A stretch of 64,000 nucleotides of DNA, taken from a virus. Its lineage: Duplodnaviria > Caudoviricetes. Within the stretch, counting starts at the first letter, position 1. Each line of letters begins with the position of its first letter. This document shows positions 2,211-8,563 of the stretch, piece by piece. Made by a program: the position numbers and the translations under genes. A model generated the notes under the pieces. It saw only the letters and a list, made by a program, of their open reading frames with translations. It had not been told where the DNA came from and searched no databases. The DNA lies in IMG/VR virus record IMGVR_UViG_3300045284_000385, positions 1,908-65,907 of that record. One strand, written 5' to 3'.

Positions 2211-2495
2211 TCAGTCATCAATATCAGGTGCTGCCTTAAGCTCCCAATGCGTTACCGGAATCGGCAATGACGCGAGCGCAACTTTCCTTGCGGTAGCCTC
2301 AGTGGTTGGGGTAAGACAATACAAGCTGCTCGGATGGTAGAACTGGGTCATCACAGTCTTCTTGCCATTTGGAATATCGACTCTGAGTAGCCCAGCTCCG
2401 GCAATGGTTTCCTCTTTGACGTATCCAGCAATTCTCCGATGTCCCATCAATTCCACAATTGCCCATCCCTCAAATCCGTTATGTTCTTCGCTCAT
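2211..2495 (-). CDS. Conserved phage hypothetical protein
   Basis: WAIVELMGHRRIAG...LLRVDIP motif typical of phage early genes; start MSEEHNG coupled to upstream stop. Confidence 0.75.
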   Translation of the reverse strand: MSEEHNGFEGWAIVELMGHRRIAGYVKEETIAGAGLLRVDIPNGKKTVMTQFYHPSSLYCLTPTTEATARKVALASLPIPVTHWELKAAPDIDD

Positions 2496-2974
2496 TAGAA
2501 AACCTCCGCTACTTCCTTCCTGCGCTCCATCTTGATCGGGGGTGGTAAGAGGCCAAGGTACTTTTCCCGTGCATATTTTGCGATGAGGATCGCGTCCGCT
2601 GTGCAATGGGTGATCTTGAATCCAGGGAACAACTGTTGAGCTTTGGCCTTCGAGATGTTCTTGTCGCCGTGGGTCAAACAATTCATATAGCGCTGCCACG
2701 TCTGTGGTGGACAATCCTCGAAGGGGATGCCAATGGATACGAGAATCCCTCTCAGGAGTCCATAGTGCATTCCGAACTTGAAACTTGAGGAGACCCCCTG
2801 CTCAGGGAAAGAATGCACGCGCTCAATGATAGCCAGGGCCAGCGGCGGGCACGCTGAGAAAATGTCCGAAGTGTCCTTTTCGGTTTCCGGCATCTTCTGA
2901 ATAGACTCCAATGTCCCGTCGTCATTCATGAAAGCTACTCCACCAGATAGACCTGGATCTATGCCTGCGAACAT
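2495..2974 (-). CDS. RuvC-like Holliday junction resolvase
   Basis: GIDPGLSGG, IIERV, SSFKFGMHYG, PQTWQ, ADAILIA RNase H-fold motifs. Confidence 0.88.
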   Translation of the reverse strand: MFAGIDPGLSGGVAFMNDDGTLESIQKMPETEKDTSDIFSACPPLALAIIERVHSFPEQGVSSSFKFGMHYGLLRGILVSIGIPFEDCPPQTWQRYMNCLTHGDKNISKAKAQQLFPGFKITHCTADAILIAKYAREKYLGLLPPPIKMERRKEVAEVF

Positions 2975-5949
2975 AAAGTCTCCTCCGAATCTGGTGCCTC
3001 TGAGATCTCTACCAAATCAAAAAGCGTAGGCGTTTCTTTCTTGCGCGAGGCCGCTTCGCAATACATGACGCCGTCTTTGAAGTAGTTCGGGTTCAGCTCA
3101 ATTCCAATTCCTCTGCGTCCCATCTGGATAGCGCAATAGGGCACCGTCATCAATCCGCCGAACGGATCAAGCACGGTATCTCCGGGCTGCGTGAACTGCC
3201 TGATCATCCGGTTTGCGATATCGAATTGCATCGGGCAGAGATGAAACTCTTTCCCCTTCTGCGCCTGGCTCATGTTCAGCGTGCGCATTCGGGCGATGTC
3301 TGTCCAGACATCTGGGTGCCAGGATGGCGGTTGTAAGAGCATGAAGGTGACTGGCAGCCTCTTGGCCTCTTCGAGAGCCTCACCTAGCTTGACGTGATAT
3401 TCATAGTCGTACACTTCCTCGAGTCCGTATTTCCTGAATAGCTTGAAGATGGCGTTGTGCTCGAGGGTCATCAACTCTTCTGGAAGAATCGGACGGTTTC
3501 CGTTAGACCGAGTGAACCCGTGGGCGTCGATCTGCCAGCGGGCTTTCGAATACTCATCCTTGCTCTTAACGACCGGCTCATCGGCGTAGCCGTTGCTGCG
3601 ATCGCTTGGAGGCTTCCTGAATAGGAGCATGTACTCAGGCATCCCGGCGCCCATGCGTGAGCCGTCCTTGCATTGCTCCGTCCAGCCGAGTCGATAGGTC
3701 TGATTGTTCTCTCTGACAACATCAGTGACGATGGTCTTTCTGGCCAGGAAAGCAAATCCGTGTTTGATGAAGTGGCGGACGGTGTCATCACTGAATGGGC
3801 TCACGGTCTGGAATCCTAAGCCAGTCAGACCGCCTGGGACGATCCGGTCCTTAACGTGGATCGCTGCGACCCTGCCTGGCTTCAGGGTGCGATACAGCTC
3901 CGTGGTAACGAAATCCAGGTGCTCGAAAAAATGAGCGTTATCGTTTGTGTGTCCTAGGTCTCGATAGGATGGCGTGTATTCGTATTGGGTAGAAAATGGG
4001 ATTGAGGTTAGAACGAAATCGATGCTGTTATTGTCCAGTGCCCGACACTCCTCTACAGCATCCGAATTGATCAGCCGATATCCTTCTCCATTCACTTCCA
4101 CTCTGTCGAAATCGATTGATCGAGTCATCTTCGAAGCAAGGCTGGCATGGCTCAGGCCGAATTCTCGAATGATCTTGCTCATCTCCTCAACCAGCTCTTT
4201 GTGTTGGTCCCACTTGCGCTGCAACGTCTGTCGCACTCCGCGCTCTGACTCTGAGTAAATGAGATCTATCCGCACCGGATGATTCTGCAGAAATCTATAT
4301 ATGCGGTGAATTGCTTGAATTGTGTCGGAGAACTTGAAAGTTATTCCTATGAAACACATTTTATGGCACTGCTGCAGGTTTATCCCCGCACCATACATTA
4401 CCGGCTTGGTGAGAAAAACCTTTGTCTTCTTGGAGCGCCAATCATCTAAGAGGAGCTCTCGCTCTTCGATAGTTTGTGATCCATAAAGAGATGAGAAAGA
4501 AATCCCTGCTCTGGAAAGAGCTCTTTCGATTGATGTTTGCTCTTCATTGAGGTCACACCAAACCACGATTTGGTCAGATAGGCCGCCGCTTTCAGCAACA
4601 GAGATGGATTGTCGTCCAGCATCCCGATTGCCGCATTGCACAGTCTGCAGAGTAGTCCTCTCACTTCTCCCGTCGTATGATCGTGATCTATCGCAGGCTT
4701 CGTCAGTAACCTCTGACAGATCGCACATTCCCAGTCCTGTATCATCAGGAGCCAATTGAACGCGTCTGGTGTTATTCCGTAAATACGATTTCTCTCCCTT
4801 TCTCTCTGCTTCTTCATTAGAACTGCTCTGTTCGCTTCCAAGTAAGCAGTCATGTAAGCCCGCCGGCCCGTTGAATTCCTGAAGGCCTCTGCTTTTTTCC
4901 TGTGCTGGTGGTAATACTGAAGTTGATACGTCCTCTGGTAGTCTTTGTATGCTTTCGTTTGGCGTCGGCGCGTCATTCGTTCCGATTCCTTCTCGAGTTT
5001 GTTCATGTATAAGCTCCATTAGTTTGCCAATTCGAGCGGGCAGACTGTCGCGCTTCTCCCTGGCTGCGTTCGATACTCCGATGGCTGAATCTTGGAACAG
5101 CCTGAGTTGGCCGTCCCTCTCTGAGCCAGCGTTGCTATGTGTGCTTGGGACCTCGTGCCAGCGAACATCGATTGGCGGAAGGTCGTATCCAGTATCGTCG
5201 AAGCCGATGTCAGAAGGGCGCTGCAGGAATATCGCCCAGGAAGCTACCCACAACCAGAACTCTCTGGTTTTGTGCCCGTGCAGAGTGAGGCGATCAGCGT
5301 GAACTGAGTCACGTTTGAAGAAGCGGGTCTTAGCCTGCCCAACATCCATGATGCCGAGGAAGGCGGCGTAGCTCAGCAATTCAATAAACTCGTTGGGTGA
5401 AGGGGTCGCCGTCGCAACGAATCGATATTTGACAGTTTCAAAGATCCGCATAAACTCCCGGAATGTTTTTGTTCCTCCGAAGCTCCGGAGCACGCTGGCC
5501 TCATCAAGTGAAGCGACCGTGAAAGCTGTGGCGTCCAGCTTCCCGTCGCGGACACTCTCATAGTTGGTAACGAAAATACCGATGGTCTTTTGCTCTTCCC
5601 ATTCAAGCGATAGCTGATCCGCTTCTTCAGTTCGGCGAATGAATCGGATCGGAATCCCAAGCATCTCAGCATCTCTCTTGAATTCCTGACGTACTCCGAG
5701 AGGGGCAACAATCAAGCCTCTTCCGCCAGACCGCTCAAGGACCAACCGAAGCGTTTCAAGCTGAATCATGGTCTTCCCAAGTCCGAAGGCTGCGAAGCAA
5801 GCGCGCCTTCCTCCAGTGGCCATCCATTCGACGATGACGCGCTGATGAGGCTTCAGGATAGGGTTGACCGCTCCGACGGCAACGCCACTCTGCTGCGCCA
5901 CGACCACTTTCATTTCTAGGAATTTCTGATAGCGCTCTCGTTCGTTCAT
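2959..5949 (-). CDS. SNF2-type helicase fused to N4/N6 DNA methyltransferase, with ~140-aa insertion
   Basis: FGLGKT, LDEAS, TATPSPN, GINLQ, QAIHRIYR helicase motifs; TSIPF and VLDPFGG...GIELN methylase motifs. Confidence 0.9.
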   Translation of the reverse strand: MNERERYQKFLEMKVVVAQQSGVAVGAVNPILKPHQRVIVEWMATGGRRACFAAFGLGKTMIQLETLRLVLERSGGRGLIVAPLGVRQEFKRDAEMLGIPIRFIRRTEEADQLSLEWEEQKTIGIFVTNYESVRDGKLDATAFTVASLDEASVLRSFGGTKTFREFMRIFETVKYRFVATATPSPNEFIELLSYAAFLGIMDVGQAKTRFFKRDSVHADRLTLHGHKTREFWLWVASWAIFLQRPSDIGFDDTGYDLPPIDVRWHEVPSTHSNAGSERDGQLRLFQDSAIGVSNAAREKRDSLPARIGKLMELIHEQTREGIGTNDAPTPNESIQRLPEDVSTSVLPPAQEKSRGLQEFNGPAGLHDCLLGSEQSSSNEEAERKGEKSYLRNNTRRVQLAPDDTGLGMCDLSEVTDEACDRSRSYDGRSERTTLQTVQCGNRDAGRQSISVAESGGLSDQIVVWCDLNEEQTSIERALSRAGISFSSLYGSQTIEERELLLDDWRSKKTKVFLTKPVMYGAGINLQQCHKMCFIGITFKFSDTIQAIHRIYRFLQNHPVRIDLIYSESERGVRQTLQRKWDQHKELVEEMSKIIREFGLSHASLASKMTRSIDFDRVEVNGEGYRLINSDAVEECRALDNNSIDFVLTSIPFSTQYEYTPSYRDLGHTNDNAHFFEHLDFVTTELYRTLKPGRVAAIHVKDRIVPGGLTGLGFQTVSPFSDDTVRHFIKHGFAFLARKTIVTDVVRENNQTYRLGWTEQCKDGSRMGAGMPEYMLLFRKPPSDRSNGYADEPVVKSKDEYSKARWQIDAHGFTRSNGNRPILPEELMTLEHNAIFKLFRKYGLEEVYDYEYHVKLGEALEEAKRLPVTFMLLQPPSWHPDVWTDIARMRTLNMSQAQKGKEFHLCPMQFDIANRMIRQFTQPGDTVLDPFGGLMTVPYCAIQMGRRGIGIELNPNYFKDGVMYCEAASRKKETPTLFDLVEISEAPDSEETLCSQA
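4446..5006 (-). CDS. Endonuclease VII-family (His-Me) homing endonuclease nested in the helicase-methylase gene
   Basis: YGIT...Q...CAIC...IDHDHTTGEVRGLLCRLCNAAIGMLDD signature; GGAG 7 nt before ATG. Confidence 0.88.
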   Translation of the reverse strand: MNKLEKESERMTRRRQTKAYKDYQRTYQLQYYHQHRKKAEAFRNSTGRRAYMTAYLEANRAVLMKKQRERERNRIYGITPDAFNWLLMIQDWECAICQRLLTKPAIDHDHTTGEVRGLLCRLCNAAIGMLDDNPSLLLKAAAYLTKSWFGVTSMKSKHQSKELFPEQGFLSHLFMDHKLSKSESSS

Positions 5950-6022
5950 AGTTTTGGTGGGCGGCTTCGAGGAGAGAGGGATGCGAAGCCCTTTTCTATC
6001 GAATTGTTGCGCCGCCCGTGAA

Positions 6023-7072
6023 TTACTCTGTCTTCGGCTCCCCGCCGATCGGAACGAATTTGACGGAGAATTTTCCTTTTGGATCGACCTGTTTGTATTG
6101 CTCTTTTATATTGGCCGGGACGTTGTACTTGGTAAACGCGGACCACTTTCCATCGATGAGGTAATGCCCGAGTATCCCCTGCTCGACTCCCCGGAACTGC
6201 TTTGAAAGATCTTCGTGTAAGGTGTCGTATTCTTTTGCGAAGGGCTTCAGTTCCTCATGCCTCTTGATCTGAGCCTCGATCTCATCGAATTCAGGTCCGG
6301 CGAAGATGCTTGCTCCGCTGCCGGCCAATGTGGGGGGTTGGCAGAAGCTTCCAAACCATTTACAGGACGGACAGAGAGTGCGCTCGACGGTGAAGTCTGG
6401 GATTGTGCCGCTTTCTTTGTATCGCATGGCTTGATCAGACTTTCCTAGGAATTCATCGAGTCGTAAGTAGTTCTCATCCGTCAATTCTGCGAGTAGAAGT
6501 TGAGGTATCCCGGAACGATCGATGATCAGAAGACCGTATTCAGAGCCAGAGCCGTACAGGTAAGAGAGCATTTGATAGCAGCCCGCGCGCGTCCATTTGT
6601 TCTCGAGCAGGTCTTCGAATCTCTTGACGCCTTGAACGAGCGTTGGAGACCACGCCTTGACTTCGAAGGGGGGCTCGGATAAACCTTTTCCGAAGTGTAG
6701 TCGCCCGTCTACCTTCCCGGTGATAACGACTCTCCCGGCAACTTCGAGAGCGAACCGTTCCTGCTGTTTGACTACTGAAAACGGCGGATCACATAGTCGC
6801 CCAATGCGATCGAGGTCTTGACGAATGTCGCGCTCCCGGTCGTTTCCTCTTCGAAATCTCGCTTTAACCTCAGCCGGGAACGGTGGGAGCTCATGGCTGT
6901 GAGTCAGGTTGTTGTAGAGATGCCGGGTGCAGGGGTGGTACTGAGAAGCCCAGACATTTTTCTGCGGCTCCTTCTGCTCGTCGCGACGCTCCTCTGCCTC
7001 GATGAATTGCTCCCAGGCCACACTGAGAGCCTTGGCGATTCCAGCGGGTGAGTCTGTGGTTGAGACGATCAT
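6023..7072 (-). CDS. PD-(D/E)XK (Cas4/RecB-like) exonuclease
   Basis: N-terminal Cys, GKVDG...FEVK, QMLSY, CPSCKWFGSFC cluster; ATGA overlap sets the start. Confidence 0.8.
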   Translation of the reverse strand: MIVSTTDSPAGIAKALSVAWEQFIEAEERRDEQKEPQKNVWASQYHPCTRHLYNNLTHSHELPPFPAEVKARFRRGNDRERDIRQDLDRIGRLCDPPFSVVKQQERFALEVAGRVVITGKVDGRLHFGKGLSEPPFEVKAWSPTLVQGVKRFEDLLENKWTRAGCYQMLSYLYGSGSEYGLLIIDRSGIPQLLLAELTDENYLRLDEFLGKSDQAMRYKESGTIPDFTVERTLCPSCKWFGSFCQPPTLAGSGASIFAGPEFDEIEAQIKRHEELKPFAKEYDTLHEDLSKQFRGVEQGILGHYLIDGKWSAFTKYNVPANIKEQYKQVDPKGKFSVKFVPIGGEPKTE

Positions 7073-7338: not shown

Positions 7339-8102
7339 TTGAGCCTCCCGGAACTGAGGTCTTGCTTGCTGAAAAACTCGATGCCAGGAATATGCGTCTG
7401 CCCTTTACTGGTCCGGGCGACTGTGTTGAGCAGTGTTTCGTTGAGCAAGAGGTATGCTCTTGGAACATCGTTCAGTTCCTTGACACGCCATCTCCACACT
7501 GTTCTACTGCTGACACCCTGGATCTTCGGCGGTGGGGGCGGCAGAGGCCTCGGTGCTGGGAGCGTGGCGACCTTCGGAATCACGACTGGAATGGATTCTA
7601 CCTTGGCGGCTTCGGCGAGGAGTTCGTCTGCCGTTTGAGTGTCGCCTTCCTGCTCCGCTTCGAGGGCCATTTGGAGAGCCATCTCCGCTTGACGCTTCTG
7701 CTCTGCTGCTTCCTCTCTGGCCTTTCGCTCCGCGGTCTCTTGTTCCTCCCTGGCTTTGCGTTCCGATTCGCGTTGCTCCCGATCGGCTTGTTCCTTGGCC
7801 ATTCTCAGTACATTATCCCGCTGCAAGATCTTGTTCTTGAGTAATCCTTCTGTTTTTAGCAGAGGAGTTGCGTGTGCTGATTTTGCTAAGAGAGCTTGCT
7901 GGTGAGCTCGGTGGGCTGATTCTATGACAGGATCAAACGTTGCTTCAATTTCGGCCTGCAGGCTCTTCACAGCTTTCAATAATTGGCCGGCGAGCAGGTA
8001 GGTAGCATCGTCGACGATGATCAGGATTTCAGCCTGTTGGATAACTTCGGTGGAGCTTCTGATGATTCCCTGTGGGGCCGGGATTGCCAATATGGTGCTC
8101 AT
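7335..8102 (-). CDS. Coiled-coil phage protein of the recombination module
   Basis: Long E/R/A coiled coil; C-terminal VPRAYL...IPGIEF motif. Confidence 0.7.
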   Translation of the reverse strand: MSTILAIPAPQGIIRSSTEVIQQAEILIIVDDATYLLAGQLLKAVKSLQAEIEATFDPVIESAHRAHQQALLAKSAHATPLLKTEGLLKNKILQRDNVLRMAKEQADREQRESERKAREEQETAERKAREEAAEQKRQAEMALQMALEAEQEGDTQTADELLAEAAKVESIPVVIPKVATLPAPRPLPPPPPKIQGVSSRTVWRWRVKELNDVPRAYLLLNETLLNTVARTSKGQTHIPGIEFFSKQDLSSGRLK

Positions 8103-8563
8103 TGAACCCCCTTCCAGGATCTTCCATGTCGAATATGGCCGATCATTCCGTGCGAGACCCCGAATTGCCTGGCTAGATCTACCAACTTGCCTGGAGTTTT
8201 CTTGATCAATTTAACGGTCTCGGAGTCGAGTTTATAACCTCTACCCTTAGACATTCGGTCTTCGATATTGTCGATGTTTGTTCCTAAGAAAAAATGATCA
8301 GGTCTAACGCAAAGCGGTGTATCGCAATGGTGAAGAACGTCCATTCCGTCTGGAATAGGTCCATATACCAATGTGTAAGCGAGTCTCGGAGCTCTCCATT
8401 TCTTTCTTTCGGCTCGTGGAGCCCTCTCCCAAATATGGCCATATCCTTTCACAGTCGGGCCAGTCCAAAACCAGCACCCATCAGTCTTGTTGACTTGAGC
8501 CCAGAATCTAATCCCTAACTCTTCGAGTCTTTCTGATTCAGTTCTCTTGGGGCGTCCCATCAA
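8099..8563 (-). CDS. HNH endonuclease with C-terminal HTH
   Basis: CWFWTG..GYG, VLHHCDTPLCVRPDH..LGT..DN..D. Confidence 0.92.
   Translation of the reverse strand: MMGRPKRTESERLEELGIRFWAQVNKTDGCWFWTGPTVKGYGHIWERAPRAERKKWRAPRLAYTLVYGPIPDGMDVLHHCDTPLCVRPDHFFLGTNIDNIEDRMSKGRGYKLDSETVKLIKKTPGKLVDLARQFGVSHGMIGHIRHGRSWKGVQ

Follow-up and report, generated by a model that had tools for sequence, protein, structure and literature searches.

In T4-like phages, free-standing endonucleases encoded by the seg and mob genes are reportedly capable of intronless homing, as Edgell et al. are said to have described in 2010. Another group of free-standing homing endonucleases, the F-CphI or 'DHHRN' family, carries the endonuclease VII catalytic motif, according to the accessible part of Fang et al. 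(2018, Mob DNA 9:27, PMC6083498). A third arrangement dispenses with a separate gene altogether. The accessible part of Arsenault, Gosselin and Gogarten (2025, Genes 16:178, PMC11855218) describes HNH insertions of the 'ShiLan-domain' type lying out of frame in actinobacteriophage DNA methylases, including gp60 of Pacc40. The element type, a stop-free out-of-frame nuclease insertion in a phage methylase, is therefore one that was already published in 2025. Out-of-frame endonuclease VII genes, by comparison, have previously been reported only within inteins, the hosts listed being DNA polymerase, minor capsid, terminase and thymidylate synthase. Searches of the openly accessible literature, covering main texts, turned up no report of an intein-free helicase that harbours an endonuclease VII gene out of frame.

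The locus described here lies in a window of 64,000 nucleotides of tailed phage DNA, which is the whole stretch that was analysed. An ORF on the minus strand (2959..5949; 996 aa, a single open frame in the ORF list) encodes an SNF2-type helicase fused to an N4/N6 DNA methylase. Its Pfam domains are SNF2-rel_dom/DEAD at residues 34-206, Helicase_C at 459-553 and N6_N4_Mtase at 643-958; its PHROG matches are 16 and 62 (DNA helicase) and 67 (methyltransferase), and it has thousands of homologs. By alignment to insert-free homologs, helicase lobe 1 occupies residues 1-313 (5011..5949, minus strand) and ends in the helix ...ARIGKLMELI. The start of lobe 2, which is of the 'VVWCDLN' allele type, occupies residues 459-600 in the same alignment (4150..4575, minus strand), and the methylase domain at residues 643-958 follows (3076..4023, minus strand; PF01555, E=4.9e-17). 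Between the lobes is an insertion of 435 nt, or 145 codons, covering host residues 314-458 (4576..5010, minus strand). It sits in the linker, flanked by KLMELI and DQIVVWCDLNEEQ, and its junctions were placed by alignment and tblastn. An initial annotation had guessed them at about 4575 and about 5005, and alignment to the insert-free homologs puts them at 4576 and 5010. The same annotation had described about 140 aa of non-helicase-like sequence after KLMELI. This stretch, read in the host frame, matches no Pfam family and is missing from the insert-free homologs, which have only a short linker here and no segment of comparable length. In L210 and L211, the linker is longer by 180 nt and has no nuclease ORF; it is possibly a remnant.

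The nested ORF is of the endonuclease VII (His-Me finger) type and is 186 aa long (4446..5006). It is on the minus strand, as is the host ORF, and in frame +1 relative to it. Its match to PF02945 Endonuclease_7 scores 73.2 bits (cut-off 23.6; E=1.6e-20), the catalytic domain taking up ORF residues 70-145 (4572..4799, minus strand; Pfam envelope), and the ORF also matches PHROG 2914 'endonuclease VII' at 2.9e-29. Profile matches in the PDB are Hpy99I (4e-14) and T4 endonuclease VII (9e-11). No HNH Pfam family was matched by the ORF at E<=0.01; the endonuclease VII type is a different family from HNH, though within the broad His-Me finger fold class. The residues C94, C97, D107, H108, H110, R116, C120, C123 and N124 are invariant in all six aligned nuclease copies, and the nuclease motif regex is satisfied by 15 of 15. 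The window nuclease is the most divergent of the copies, with an end branch of 2.96 and at most 35% identity to the others. Its ATG is at 5006..5004. Located 7 nt upstream is a Shine-Dalgarno-like GGAG motif (5014..5017, minus strand), the predicted ribosome-binding site. The motif is made by the host Met-Glu codons of KLMELI, and the host codons ATGGAG stand ahead of the putative nuclease start in 7 of 15 copies examined. At its other end, the nuclease ORF overprints the start of helicase lobe 2 with its last 43 codons (4446..4575, including the stop). The initial annotation had recognised both this nested ORF and its GGAG from the sequence.

Two other descriptions of the nested ORF were considered and set aside. 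A free-standing homing endonuclease gene does not describe an ORF wholly within the host ORF. Production of the nuclease as a frameshifted extension of lobe 1 is also rejected. A stop codon lies in the window nuclease frame 12 nt ahead of the ATG, and the copies have starts of their own; hence, separate initiation is the simpler account.

The insertion recurs at the identical site in 22 contigs, comprising the window and 21 others, as located by tblastn anchoring. The viral contigs with the insert number 10, with 9 distinct sequences (window, L002, L003=L173, L004, L005=L176, L022=L223, L156=L228, L167, L168, L212). Ten of 71 bacterial-genome loci have it, in prophages whose bacterial hosts belong to the Proteobacteria, Acidobacteria and Actinobacteria. 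Two cultured Gordonia phages, Malisha and Squiddly, also carry it. Gordonia phage Holliday, also cultured, is without it. The insert is 417-585 nt long (139-195 codons), always a multiple of 3, and the host frame has no stop in any of the 22. The nuclease is in frame +1 relative to the host in 20 contigs and in frame +2 in Malisha and Squiddly, and its ORF overlaps conserved host sequence by 4-43 codons. Every insert-bearing contig has the nuclease motifs intact. Loci of the same allele type mostly lack the insert (absent from 69 of 79 and from 61 of 71). Among proteins, the insert always goes with the VVWCDLN type: of 41 such proteins, 23 have it, with 3 more aligned in part, versus none of 75 of the other type. 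These frequencies are biased, since similarity to an insert-bearing query determined the ranking of the 120 proteins underlying them.

The absence of stops in the host frame, noted already in the initial annotation, is not what the coding of the nuclease would be expected to produce. Synonymous-codon shuffles of the inner ORF of the window gave a mean of 9.7 host-frame stops and left that frame open in 0 of 2000 cases, so it is stop-free beyond chance. The third frame of the same ORF has 15 stops. Across 18 distinct copies, the shuffles predict an average of 1.2-9.7 host-frame stops per copy, and the third frame has 3-16. The probability of an open host frame by shuffling ranges from 0 to 0.245 per copy, with 14 of the 18 copies at 0.02 or less; the test is weak alone for the most GC-rich copies (L274, 0.245; L243, 0.096; L252, 0.086). 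A control set of 80 endonuclease VII relatives was drawn from viral contigs searched with the endonuclease alignment, and the matches lie almost all outside this host gene. Only one of the 80 keeps the equivalent frame open over the matched region, and that one is in the same host gene; the other 79 have no spanning ORF in another frame. Identity among the insert-borne copies is 0.53, 0.57 and 0.41 at the first, second and third codon positions. Translated in the nuclease frame, the copies share an amino acid identity of 0.40; translation in the host frame gives 0.245 and in the third frame 0.25. The third codon position being the most variable indicates purifying selection on the nuclease frame. 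Judged from these comparisons of sequence, selection keeps the host frame open yet ignores what it spells, with conservation in the nuclease frame only.

What the host frame spells is modeled by AlphaFold2 as coil without secondary structure over residues 318-457 (pLDDT of ~25), with a helix at 303-320 before it and a strand at 461-464 after it. In this model, the host-frame read of the insert is probably an unstructured loop between the RecA-like lobes. We consider it likely that an endonuclease VII homing-type gene having neither intron nor intein invaded the inter-lobe linker, and that the host frame is read through as a loop. This was one of two explanations offered by the initial annotation, namely a selfish insertion tolerated by keeping both frames open between the RecA domains. 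It agrees with the host frames open in 22 of 22, the short linker of the insert-free homologs and the predicted coil.

The divergence of the window nuclease raises the question of whether it is a dead relic, with its insert kept since precise removal is hard and the loop harmless. Its end branch and low identity to the other copies would suit a relic, as would a tail into lobe 2 that is unusually long at 43 codons. However, every catalytic and zinc-binding residue is retained, and the ORF is intact with its ATG and GGAG. The third codon position varies most across the copies, and no decayed nuclease was seen among the 22 contigs, although the 180-nt linker of L210 and L211 might be a remnant. 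We therefore regard a relic as highly improbable.

The other explanation of the initial annotation was that the insert is removed by an unrecognised splicing or bypass mechanism, and that one found no support. An E-value scan of positions 3500-6000 on both strands with Rfam 15 returned three chance-level matches (E of 4 or more), none of them an intron. Group I and group II introns were rejected on the lack of a covariance-model match in this permissive scan, in keeping with the annotation having seen no group I core. It had also seen no intein termini. The termini (C/S/T at 1, terminal HN, C/S/T at +1) are absent in 18 of the 18 copies displayed, the window junctions reading ...MELI/HEQ... 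and ...GGLS/DQI... in the host frame; Pfam matches to the host ORF included neither Hint nor intein families. An intein was rejected on these grounds and because identity in the host frame equals that in the non-coding frame. In addition, the insert of 139-195 codons is essentially occupied by the nuclease ORF, which leaves no space for a splicing domain. In the absence of such a domain, the insert would have to remain in the protein. Programmed bypass of the T4 gene 60 type requires a stop after the take-off codon and a skipped non-coding gap. It was rejected because the host frame has no stop in the insert for a bypass to skip. Group I introns are variable in sequence and may evade covariance models, but removal at the RNA level needs neither a length in multiples of 3 nor an open frame, and both are found in 22 of 22 against the shuffle expectation. 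It is thus very unlikely, in our estimation, that the insert is removed before maturation, be it as an unrecognised intron, as a degenerate intein or by a bypass like that of T4 gene 60.

The distribution of the insert on the host tree, which was built on whole ORFs by a quick search with SH-aLRT support only, is patchy. It is in 10 of 29 rows in one clade, with at least seven changes, at least four of which are forced by well-supported branches. The window protein is also a mosaic. P0002, which is insert-free and otherwise the closest homolog, is 84-100% identical to it in most 25-aa windows; in residues 476-525, the identity of P0002 is 28-36% versus 68-76% for insert-bearing proteins. By sliding identity, the tract in which P0002 is no longer the closest relative spans host residues ~251-550 (4300..5199, minus strand). 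We read this tract as putative co-converted flanks, a pattern that fits gain or loss of the insert alike. Between Malisha and Squiddly, identity is 98-100% in the insert with its adjacent flanks and 64-93% farther away. The patchy distribution together with near-identical tracts of insert plus flank indicates homing with co-conversion. The endonuclease tree of nine copies is poorly resolved, with no starred branch and the window nuclease on a very long branch. For three host-tree pairs, AU tests of congruence with the endonuclease tree returned p values of 0.053, 0.086 and 0.050, which are borderline and suggestive only.

These same patterns bear on whether the nested nuclease is selfish at all. 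It might instead serve the phage in packaging or resolution, or it might supply the cleavage activity in a restriction-modification-like pairing with the methylase, in which case nesting would secure co-inheritance and coupled expression. Its top solved-structure match is the restriction enzyme Hpy99I, the host protein is a methylase-helicase, and all the copies seen are intact, as for a useful gene. Against this, the insert is missing from most loci of the same allele type (69/79 and 61/71) and from 75 of 75 proteins of the other type, and its distribution is patchy. The near-identical insert-plus-flank tracts stand in diverged backgrounds, which is typical of homing, and the host gene also carries an out-of-frame HNH elsewhere and classical inteins. 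As to resolution, the phage encodes a separate RuvC-like resolvase (2495..2974), so the nested ORF is not required as one. We judge a useful partner to be unlikely. In a related proposal, the nuclease and the surrounding methylase would be a functional pair, methylation shielding the phage's own and other insert-bearing genomes while unmethylated relatives are cut. We hold this to be quite unlikely. The sole positive hint of such a pair is that the closest structural relative of the nuclease is a restriction enzyme. If it were true, a homing endonuclease would obtain its self-immunity from the gene it inhabits, and not from target disruption or polymorphism. The result would be a restriction-modification-like weapon between rival phages made of one gene in two frames.

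The preferred reading, homing into the linker with read-through of the host frame, would work as follows. An F-CphI-like His-Me finger homing-type gene would have entered the linker between the RecA-like lobes of a phage SNF2-helicase/DNA-methylase gene. Since the insert is a multiple of 3 and the host frame is stop-free, ribosomes on the host gene would traverse it, giving a helicase-methylase with an extra unstructured inter-lobe loop of ~145 aa. From the anatomy of the locus, we infer that translation of the nuclease would begin independently on the same mRNA, in frame +1, at the ATG of the 5' junction. The GGAG supplied by the conserved Met-Glu codons of the host would act as its ribosome-binding site, and its ORF would terminate at the out-of-frame stop within lobe 2. 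The distribution and mosaicism suggest that the nuclease probably cleaves insert-free alleles of co-infecting relatives. Repair would then copy the insert plus flanking host sequence, which is intronless homing with co-conversion. Cultured Gordonia phages with the insert (Malisha, Squiddly) and without it (Holliday) make the model directly testable.

The host gene family carries at least three out-of-frame nuclease arrangements: the endonuclease VII at the linker, an HNH at a different position, and a DUF559 nuclease within an intein. The family also has classical inteins. With the HNH at another site and classical inteins in the same gene, it resembles a hot spot for selfish elements, and the family offers a natural test bed for the colonisation of coding sequence by homing endonucleases. 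The nested nucleases are unlisted because annotation pipelines call only the long ORF.

Among the known systems, the insertion compares most extensively with the ShiLan-domain elements, as these are described in the accessible part of Arsenault et al. (PMC11855218). Both are inside a phage DNA-modification gene with the host frame open and the nuclease on the same strand in another frame. In both, there is no intron or intein signature, and the in-frame read is predicted to be a loop or disordered. Both have a disjunct distribution interpreted as homing. Pacc40 gp60 is itself a member of the helicase-methylase family to which the host gene in the window belongs. The differences are that the nuclease here is of the endonuclease VII type (PF02945) rather than HNH, and that the site is the inter-lobe linker. 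The Pacc40 insert is at reference residue ~250, a site also occupied in L204 and L208, whose inserts carry HNH and are likewise not at the linker. The text of that article gives no detectable ribosome-binding site for its elements and proposes leaderless initiation, whereas here a GGAG in host codons precedes the start. Also unlike the elements as described there, the nuclease ORF here extends over 4-43 codons of conserved host sequence, and carriers are found outside actinophages too, among prophages of Proteobacteria and Acidobacteria (PMC11855218).

The intein-borne out-of-frame endonuclease VII elements have the same nuclease family in a same-strand insertion in a phage gene, again with the host frame open, but they have a splicing domain that excises the insertion, and there is none here. 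With F-CphI, as covered by the accessible part of Fang et al. (PMC6083498), the likeness is at the motif level, D/H/H/R/N of the endonuclease VII type being invariant in the copies here, and in the putative role as a phage homing endonuclease without an intron or intein of its own. F-CphI is a separate gene beside its target, whereas here the nuclease is nested in the host coding sequence (PMC6083498). What is new is a second nuclease family, the endonuclease VII type, using this stop-free mode of hiding, in which the insert is probably translated as a loop. Also new are its insertion site in a helicase inter-lobe linker, the occurrence of this mode among phages and prophages whose hosts span at least three bacterial phyla, and quantitative evidence that openness of the host frame, and not its sequence, is selected. 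As in the intronless homing of the T4 seg and mob genes, the insert appears to be inherited with flanking host sequence in co-conversion tracts, but those genes lie between genes or split one in two, and the host gene here stays a single ORF.

The virus record is 65.9 kb long with direct terminal repeats, and the window covers nearly all of it. Its minus strand carries a 996-aa ORF (2959..5949) identified by the ORF list, Pfam and PHROG as a SNF2-type helicase fused to an N4/N6 DNA methylase. Wholly within it, on the same strand in frame +1, lies a 186-aa ORF (4446..5006) that matches Pfam Endonuclease_7 (E=1.6e-20) and PHROG 'endonuclease VII' families; a profile search of solved structures with this ORF returned Hpy99I and T4 endonuclease VII. 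The nuclease start codon, read from the sequence, is an ATG at 5006..5004 (minus), and 7 nt 5' of it is a GGAG (5017..5014, minus) made of the host Met-Glu codons in KLMELI. The host frame contains no stop. The initial annotation had described this nesting, with an RBS belonging to the nuclease ORF and a stop-free host frame across it. The observation is real in each of these respects, to which we add the strand, missing there. The phage encodes a RuvC-like Holliday junction resolvase separately (2495..2974, minus), in a gene that shares 16 nt with the 3' end of the helicase-methylase gene; therefore, the nested ORF was rejected as the phage's resolvase. Upstream of the host gene, at a distance of about 2 kb, is a free-standing HNH_3 endonuclease ORF (8099..8563, minus; E=2e-10).

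Alignment with 14 homologs and tblastn anchoring place an insertion of 435 nt, or 145 codons, at 4576..5010 (minus), near the junctions guessed initially at ~4575 and ~5005. It is flanked by the last helix of the first RecA-like helicase lobe (...KLMELI) and the first strand of the second (DQIVVWCDLN...). Homologs lacking the endonuclease have a short linker of a few residues here rather than an equally long segment. The nuclease ORF begins 4 nt past the 5' junction and ends 43 codons (stop included) beyond the 3' junction, with its tail overprinting conserved sequence of the host gene. In an AlphaFold2 model built from a 15-sequence alignment, with an only moderate whole-model mean pLDDT of 61.9, residues 318-457 have a pLDDT of ~25 and no secondary structure, and are flanked by a helix (303-320) and a strand (461-464).

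The same-site insertion with an out-of-frame endonuclease VII ORF occurs in 22 contigs, the window included. Nine others are viral contigs (L002, L003=L173, L004, L005=L176, L022=L223, L156=L228, L167, L168 and L212, with L168 identical to L167). Ten of 71 bacterial-genome loci carry it: Gellertiella, Acidovorax, Azospirillum, an Acidobacteria MAG, two Variovorax, Dactylosporangium, Microbacterium jejuense, an uncultured bacterium and a Caulobacter MAG. It is also present in the cultured Gordonia phages Malisha (gp71; L313) and Squiddly (gp64; L316), where the nuclease is in frame +2 and ends with its own stop at the 3' junction; the gene carries only the annotation 'DNA helicase', and the nested nuclease is unannotated. 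In these two phages and in Holliday (gp68; L315), which has the empty allele without the insert, helicase and methylase are separate overlapping genes. Among the viral carriers, the host frame of L002 stops at ~6670, about 350 nt short of the end of the tblastn methylase match, which could be a frame break or a two-gene split as in the Gordonia phages. In L210 and L211, the inter-lobe site contains 180 nt of additional linker (~2824-3003) in which none of the frames has a nuclease ORF; this may be what is left of an insert that decayed or was deleted, or else a linker variant of unrelated origin. In Mycobacterium sp. 48b (L273:5046-5363), an endonuclease VII match in a frame different from the host gene's lies about 2 kb downstream of the lobe-2 anchor.

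The viral copies were found by two host-gene-motif searches and the bacterial ones by genome search, all three independent of frame openness. All 22 contigs have an insert whose length (417-585 nt) is divisible by 3 and whose host frame contains zero stops. Synonymous-codon shuffles of the nuclease ORF in 18 distinct copies gave means of 1.2-9.7 host-frame stops per copy. For the window, the mean was 9.7 and none of 2000 shuffles was open; the weakest case was L274, with P(open) = 0.245. The third frame has 3-16 stops. As a control, the equivalent frame was open across the match in only 1 of 80 endonuclease VII relatives from viral contigs, and that one, L156, is a nuclease within the same host gene. 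These results show that openness of the host frame is selected. Across 129 ungapped codon columns of the insert in nine copies, nucleotide identity at the first, second and third codon positions of the nuclease frame is 0.53, 0.57 and 0.41; at the amino-acid level, identity is 0.40 for the nuclease frame, 0.245 for the host frame and 0.25 for the third. Therefore, purifying selection acts on the nuclease frame, and the only selection on the host frame is against stops. One expects this pattern if ribosomes must cross the insert while the peptide is a mere spacer.

The alternative raised initially was that the insert is removed by an unrecognised splicing or bypass mechanism. Scanning both strands of 3500-6000 against Rfam at a permissive threshold returned three matches, all E>=4 and none an intron. 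The host protein has no match to a Hint/intein family, and the 18 copies whose host-frame read was inspected lack intein termini (C/S/T as first insert residue, HN last, C/S/T after), which upholds the initial remark that neither these nor an obvious group I core could be seen. The nuclease ORF takes up essentially the whole insert, leaving no room for a splicing domain. The intron/intein reading was rejected on these grounds. Gene-60-type translational bypass requires a stop codon to skip, and the host frame of the insert has none, so that reading was rejected as well.

The distribution and flanks of the insert bear on its mobility. On a quick IQ-TREE host tree with SH-aLRT support, made from 69 proteins of the insert-carrying lobe-2 type, the 10 insert-bearing rows are confined to one 29-row clade and scattered inside it; presence of the insert requires no fewer than 7 changes, and well-supported branches force 4 of these. 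Among 117 of the 120 best protein matches, ranked by likeness to the query, the insert is in 23 of 41 'VVWCDLN' lobe-2 proteins, plus 3 with partly aligned inserts, and in 0 of 75 of the other lobe-2 type. The three proteins excluded for exceeding 1100 aa are P0049 (1706 aa), P0034 (1339 aa) and P0104 (1198 aa); P0049 has a precomputed Hint_2 domain and therefore holds at least one intein. The closest homolog of the window protein, the insert-free P0002, is 84-100% identical to it in most 25-residue windows, dropping to 28-36% across residues 476-525. From about residue 251 to 550, it is no longer the closest, and the best there (68-80%) are mostly insert-bearing proteins. Across the insert and its immediate flanks (alignment positions 660-1620), Malisha and Squiddly share 98-100% identity, compared with 64-93% elsewhere in the gene; identity of the insert-free Holliday allele to Malisha is 80-90% distally and 57-65% beside the site. 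Both mosaics are signs that the insert was transferred along with host sequence on either side. Incongruence tests of the nuclease tree against the host tree were only borderline (p = 0.05-0.09).

We propose that a homing-type endonuclease gene established itself in the permissive linker between domains. The host protein would be made with an extra disordered loop, and the nuclease through internal initiation at the 5' junction; in 7 of 15 copies examined, the host codons ATGGAG precede the putative nuclease start by 7-10 nt. We infer that the nuclease is active on insert-free alleles, in which case it would spread by cleaving them, with repair then co-converting the flanks. The main initial interpretation, a selfish insertion tolerated as a loop between the lobes with both frames open, is right, judged by the 22 open frames, the shuffles and the AlphaFold2 model.

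Other insertions occur in this host gene family. A second stop-free site follows ...RPSDL at reference residue ~250, with inserts of ~480-490 nt; 157-aa HNH ORFs of PHROG 374 occupy it in frame +2 in L204 (2310-2780, E=4e-61) and L208 (2316-2786, E=3e-63). The published out-of-frame insert of Pacc40 gp60 (L314, about 5861-6343) is at this site, and gp60 has no linker-site insert. A classical intein with weak Hint matches interrupts the helicase DEAD-box in L068 (433-1539, =L187; LDEAA/C...VHN/C). Its middle is low-complexity in frame. In frame +1, a 347-aa ORF combines CxxC pairs resembling a zinc ribbon with a DUF559/Vsr-like nuclease domain (E=2.2e-11): an intein housing an out-of-frame nuclease on the sense strand. 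In-frame insertions of ~910-1120 nt without host-frame stops are seen at reference residue ~760, within the methylase, in L193, L195, L253, L262 and L314 (Pacc40), and at reference residue ~206 in L283; that of L193 looks like a classical intein containing a LAGLIDADG-like segment. A low-GC (0.35) relative, L230, has ~1 kb between helicase and methylase parts (3393-4438) with stops in all frames; by eye, an ORF there looked like a radical-SAM-type protein.

The element belongs to a recently described kind. [quoted passage not shown] A second hidden-HNH case is the helicase-methylase Pacc40 gp60 (Arsenault, Gosselin & Gogarten 2025, PMC11855218). Pacc40 gp60 is of the same protein family as the window's host gene, but its insert is at residue ~250, as in L204 and L208, and the window's is at the linker. 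Homing endonucleases with an endonuclease VII motif are established by the account of Fang et al. (2018, PMC6083498; F-CphI, 'DHHRN'). In the main text of the openly accessible papers searched, we found no account of endonuclease VII sitting out of frame in a helicase linker where no intein is present. The present element departs from the described kind in its nuclease family and its insertion site, and its host range is much wider; we add quantitative evidence of selection on frame openness.
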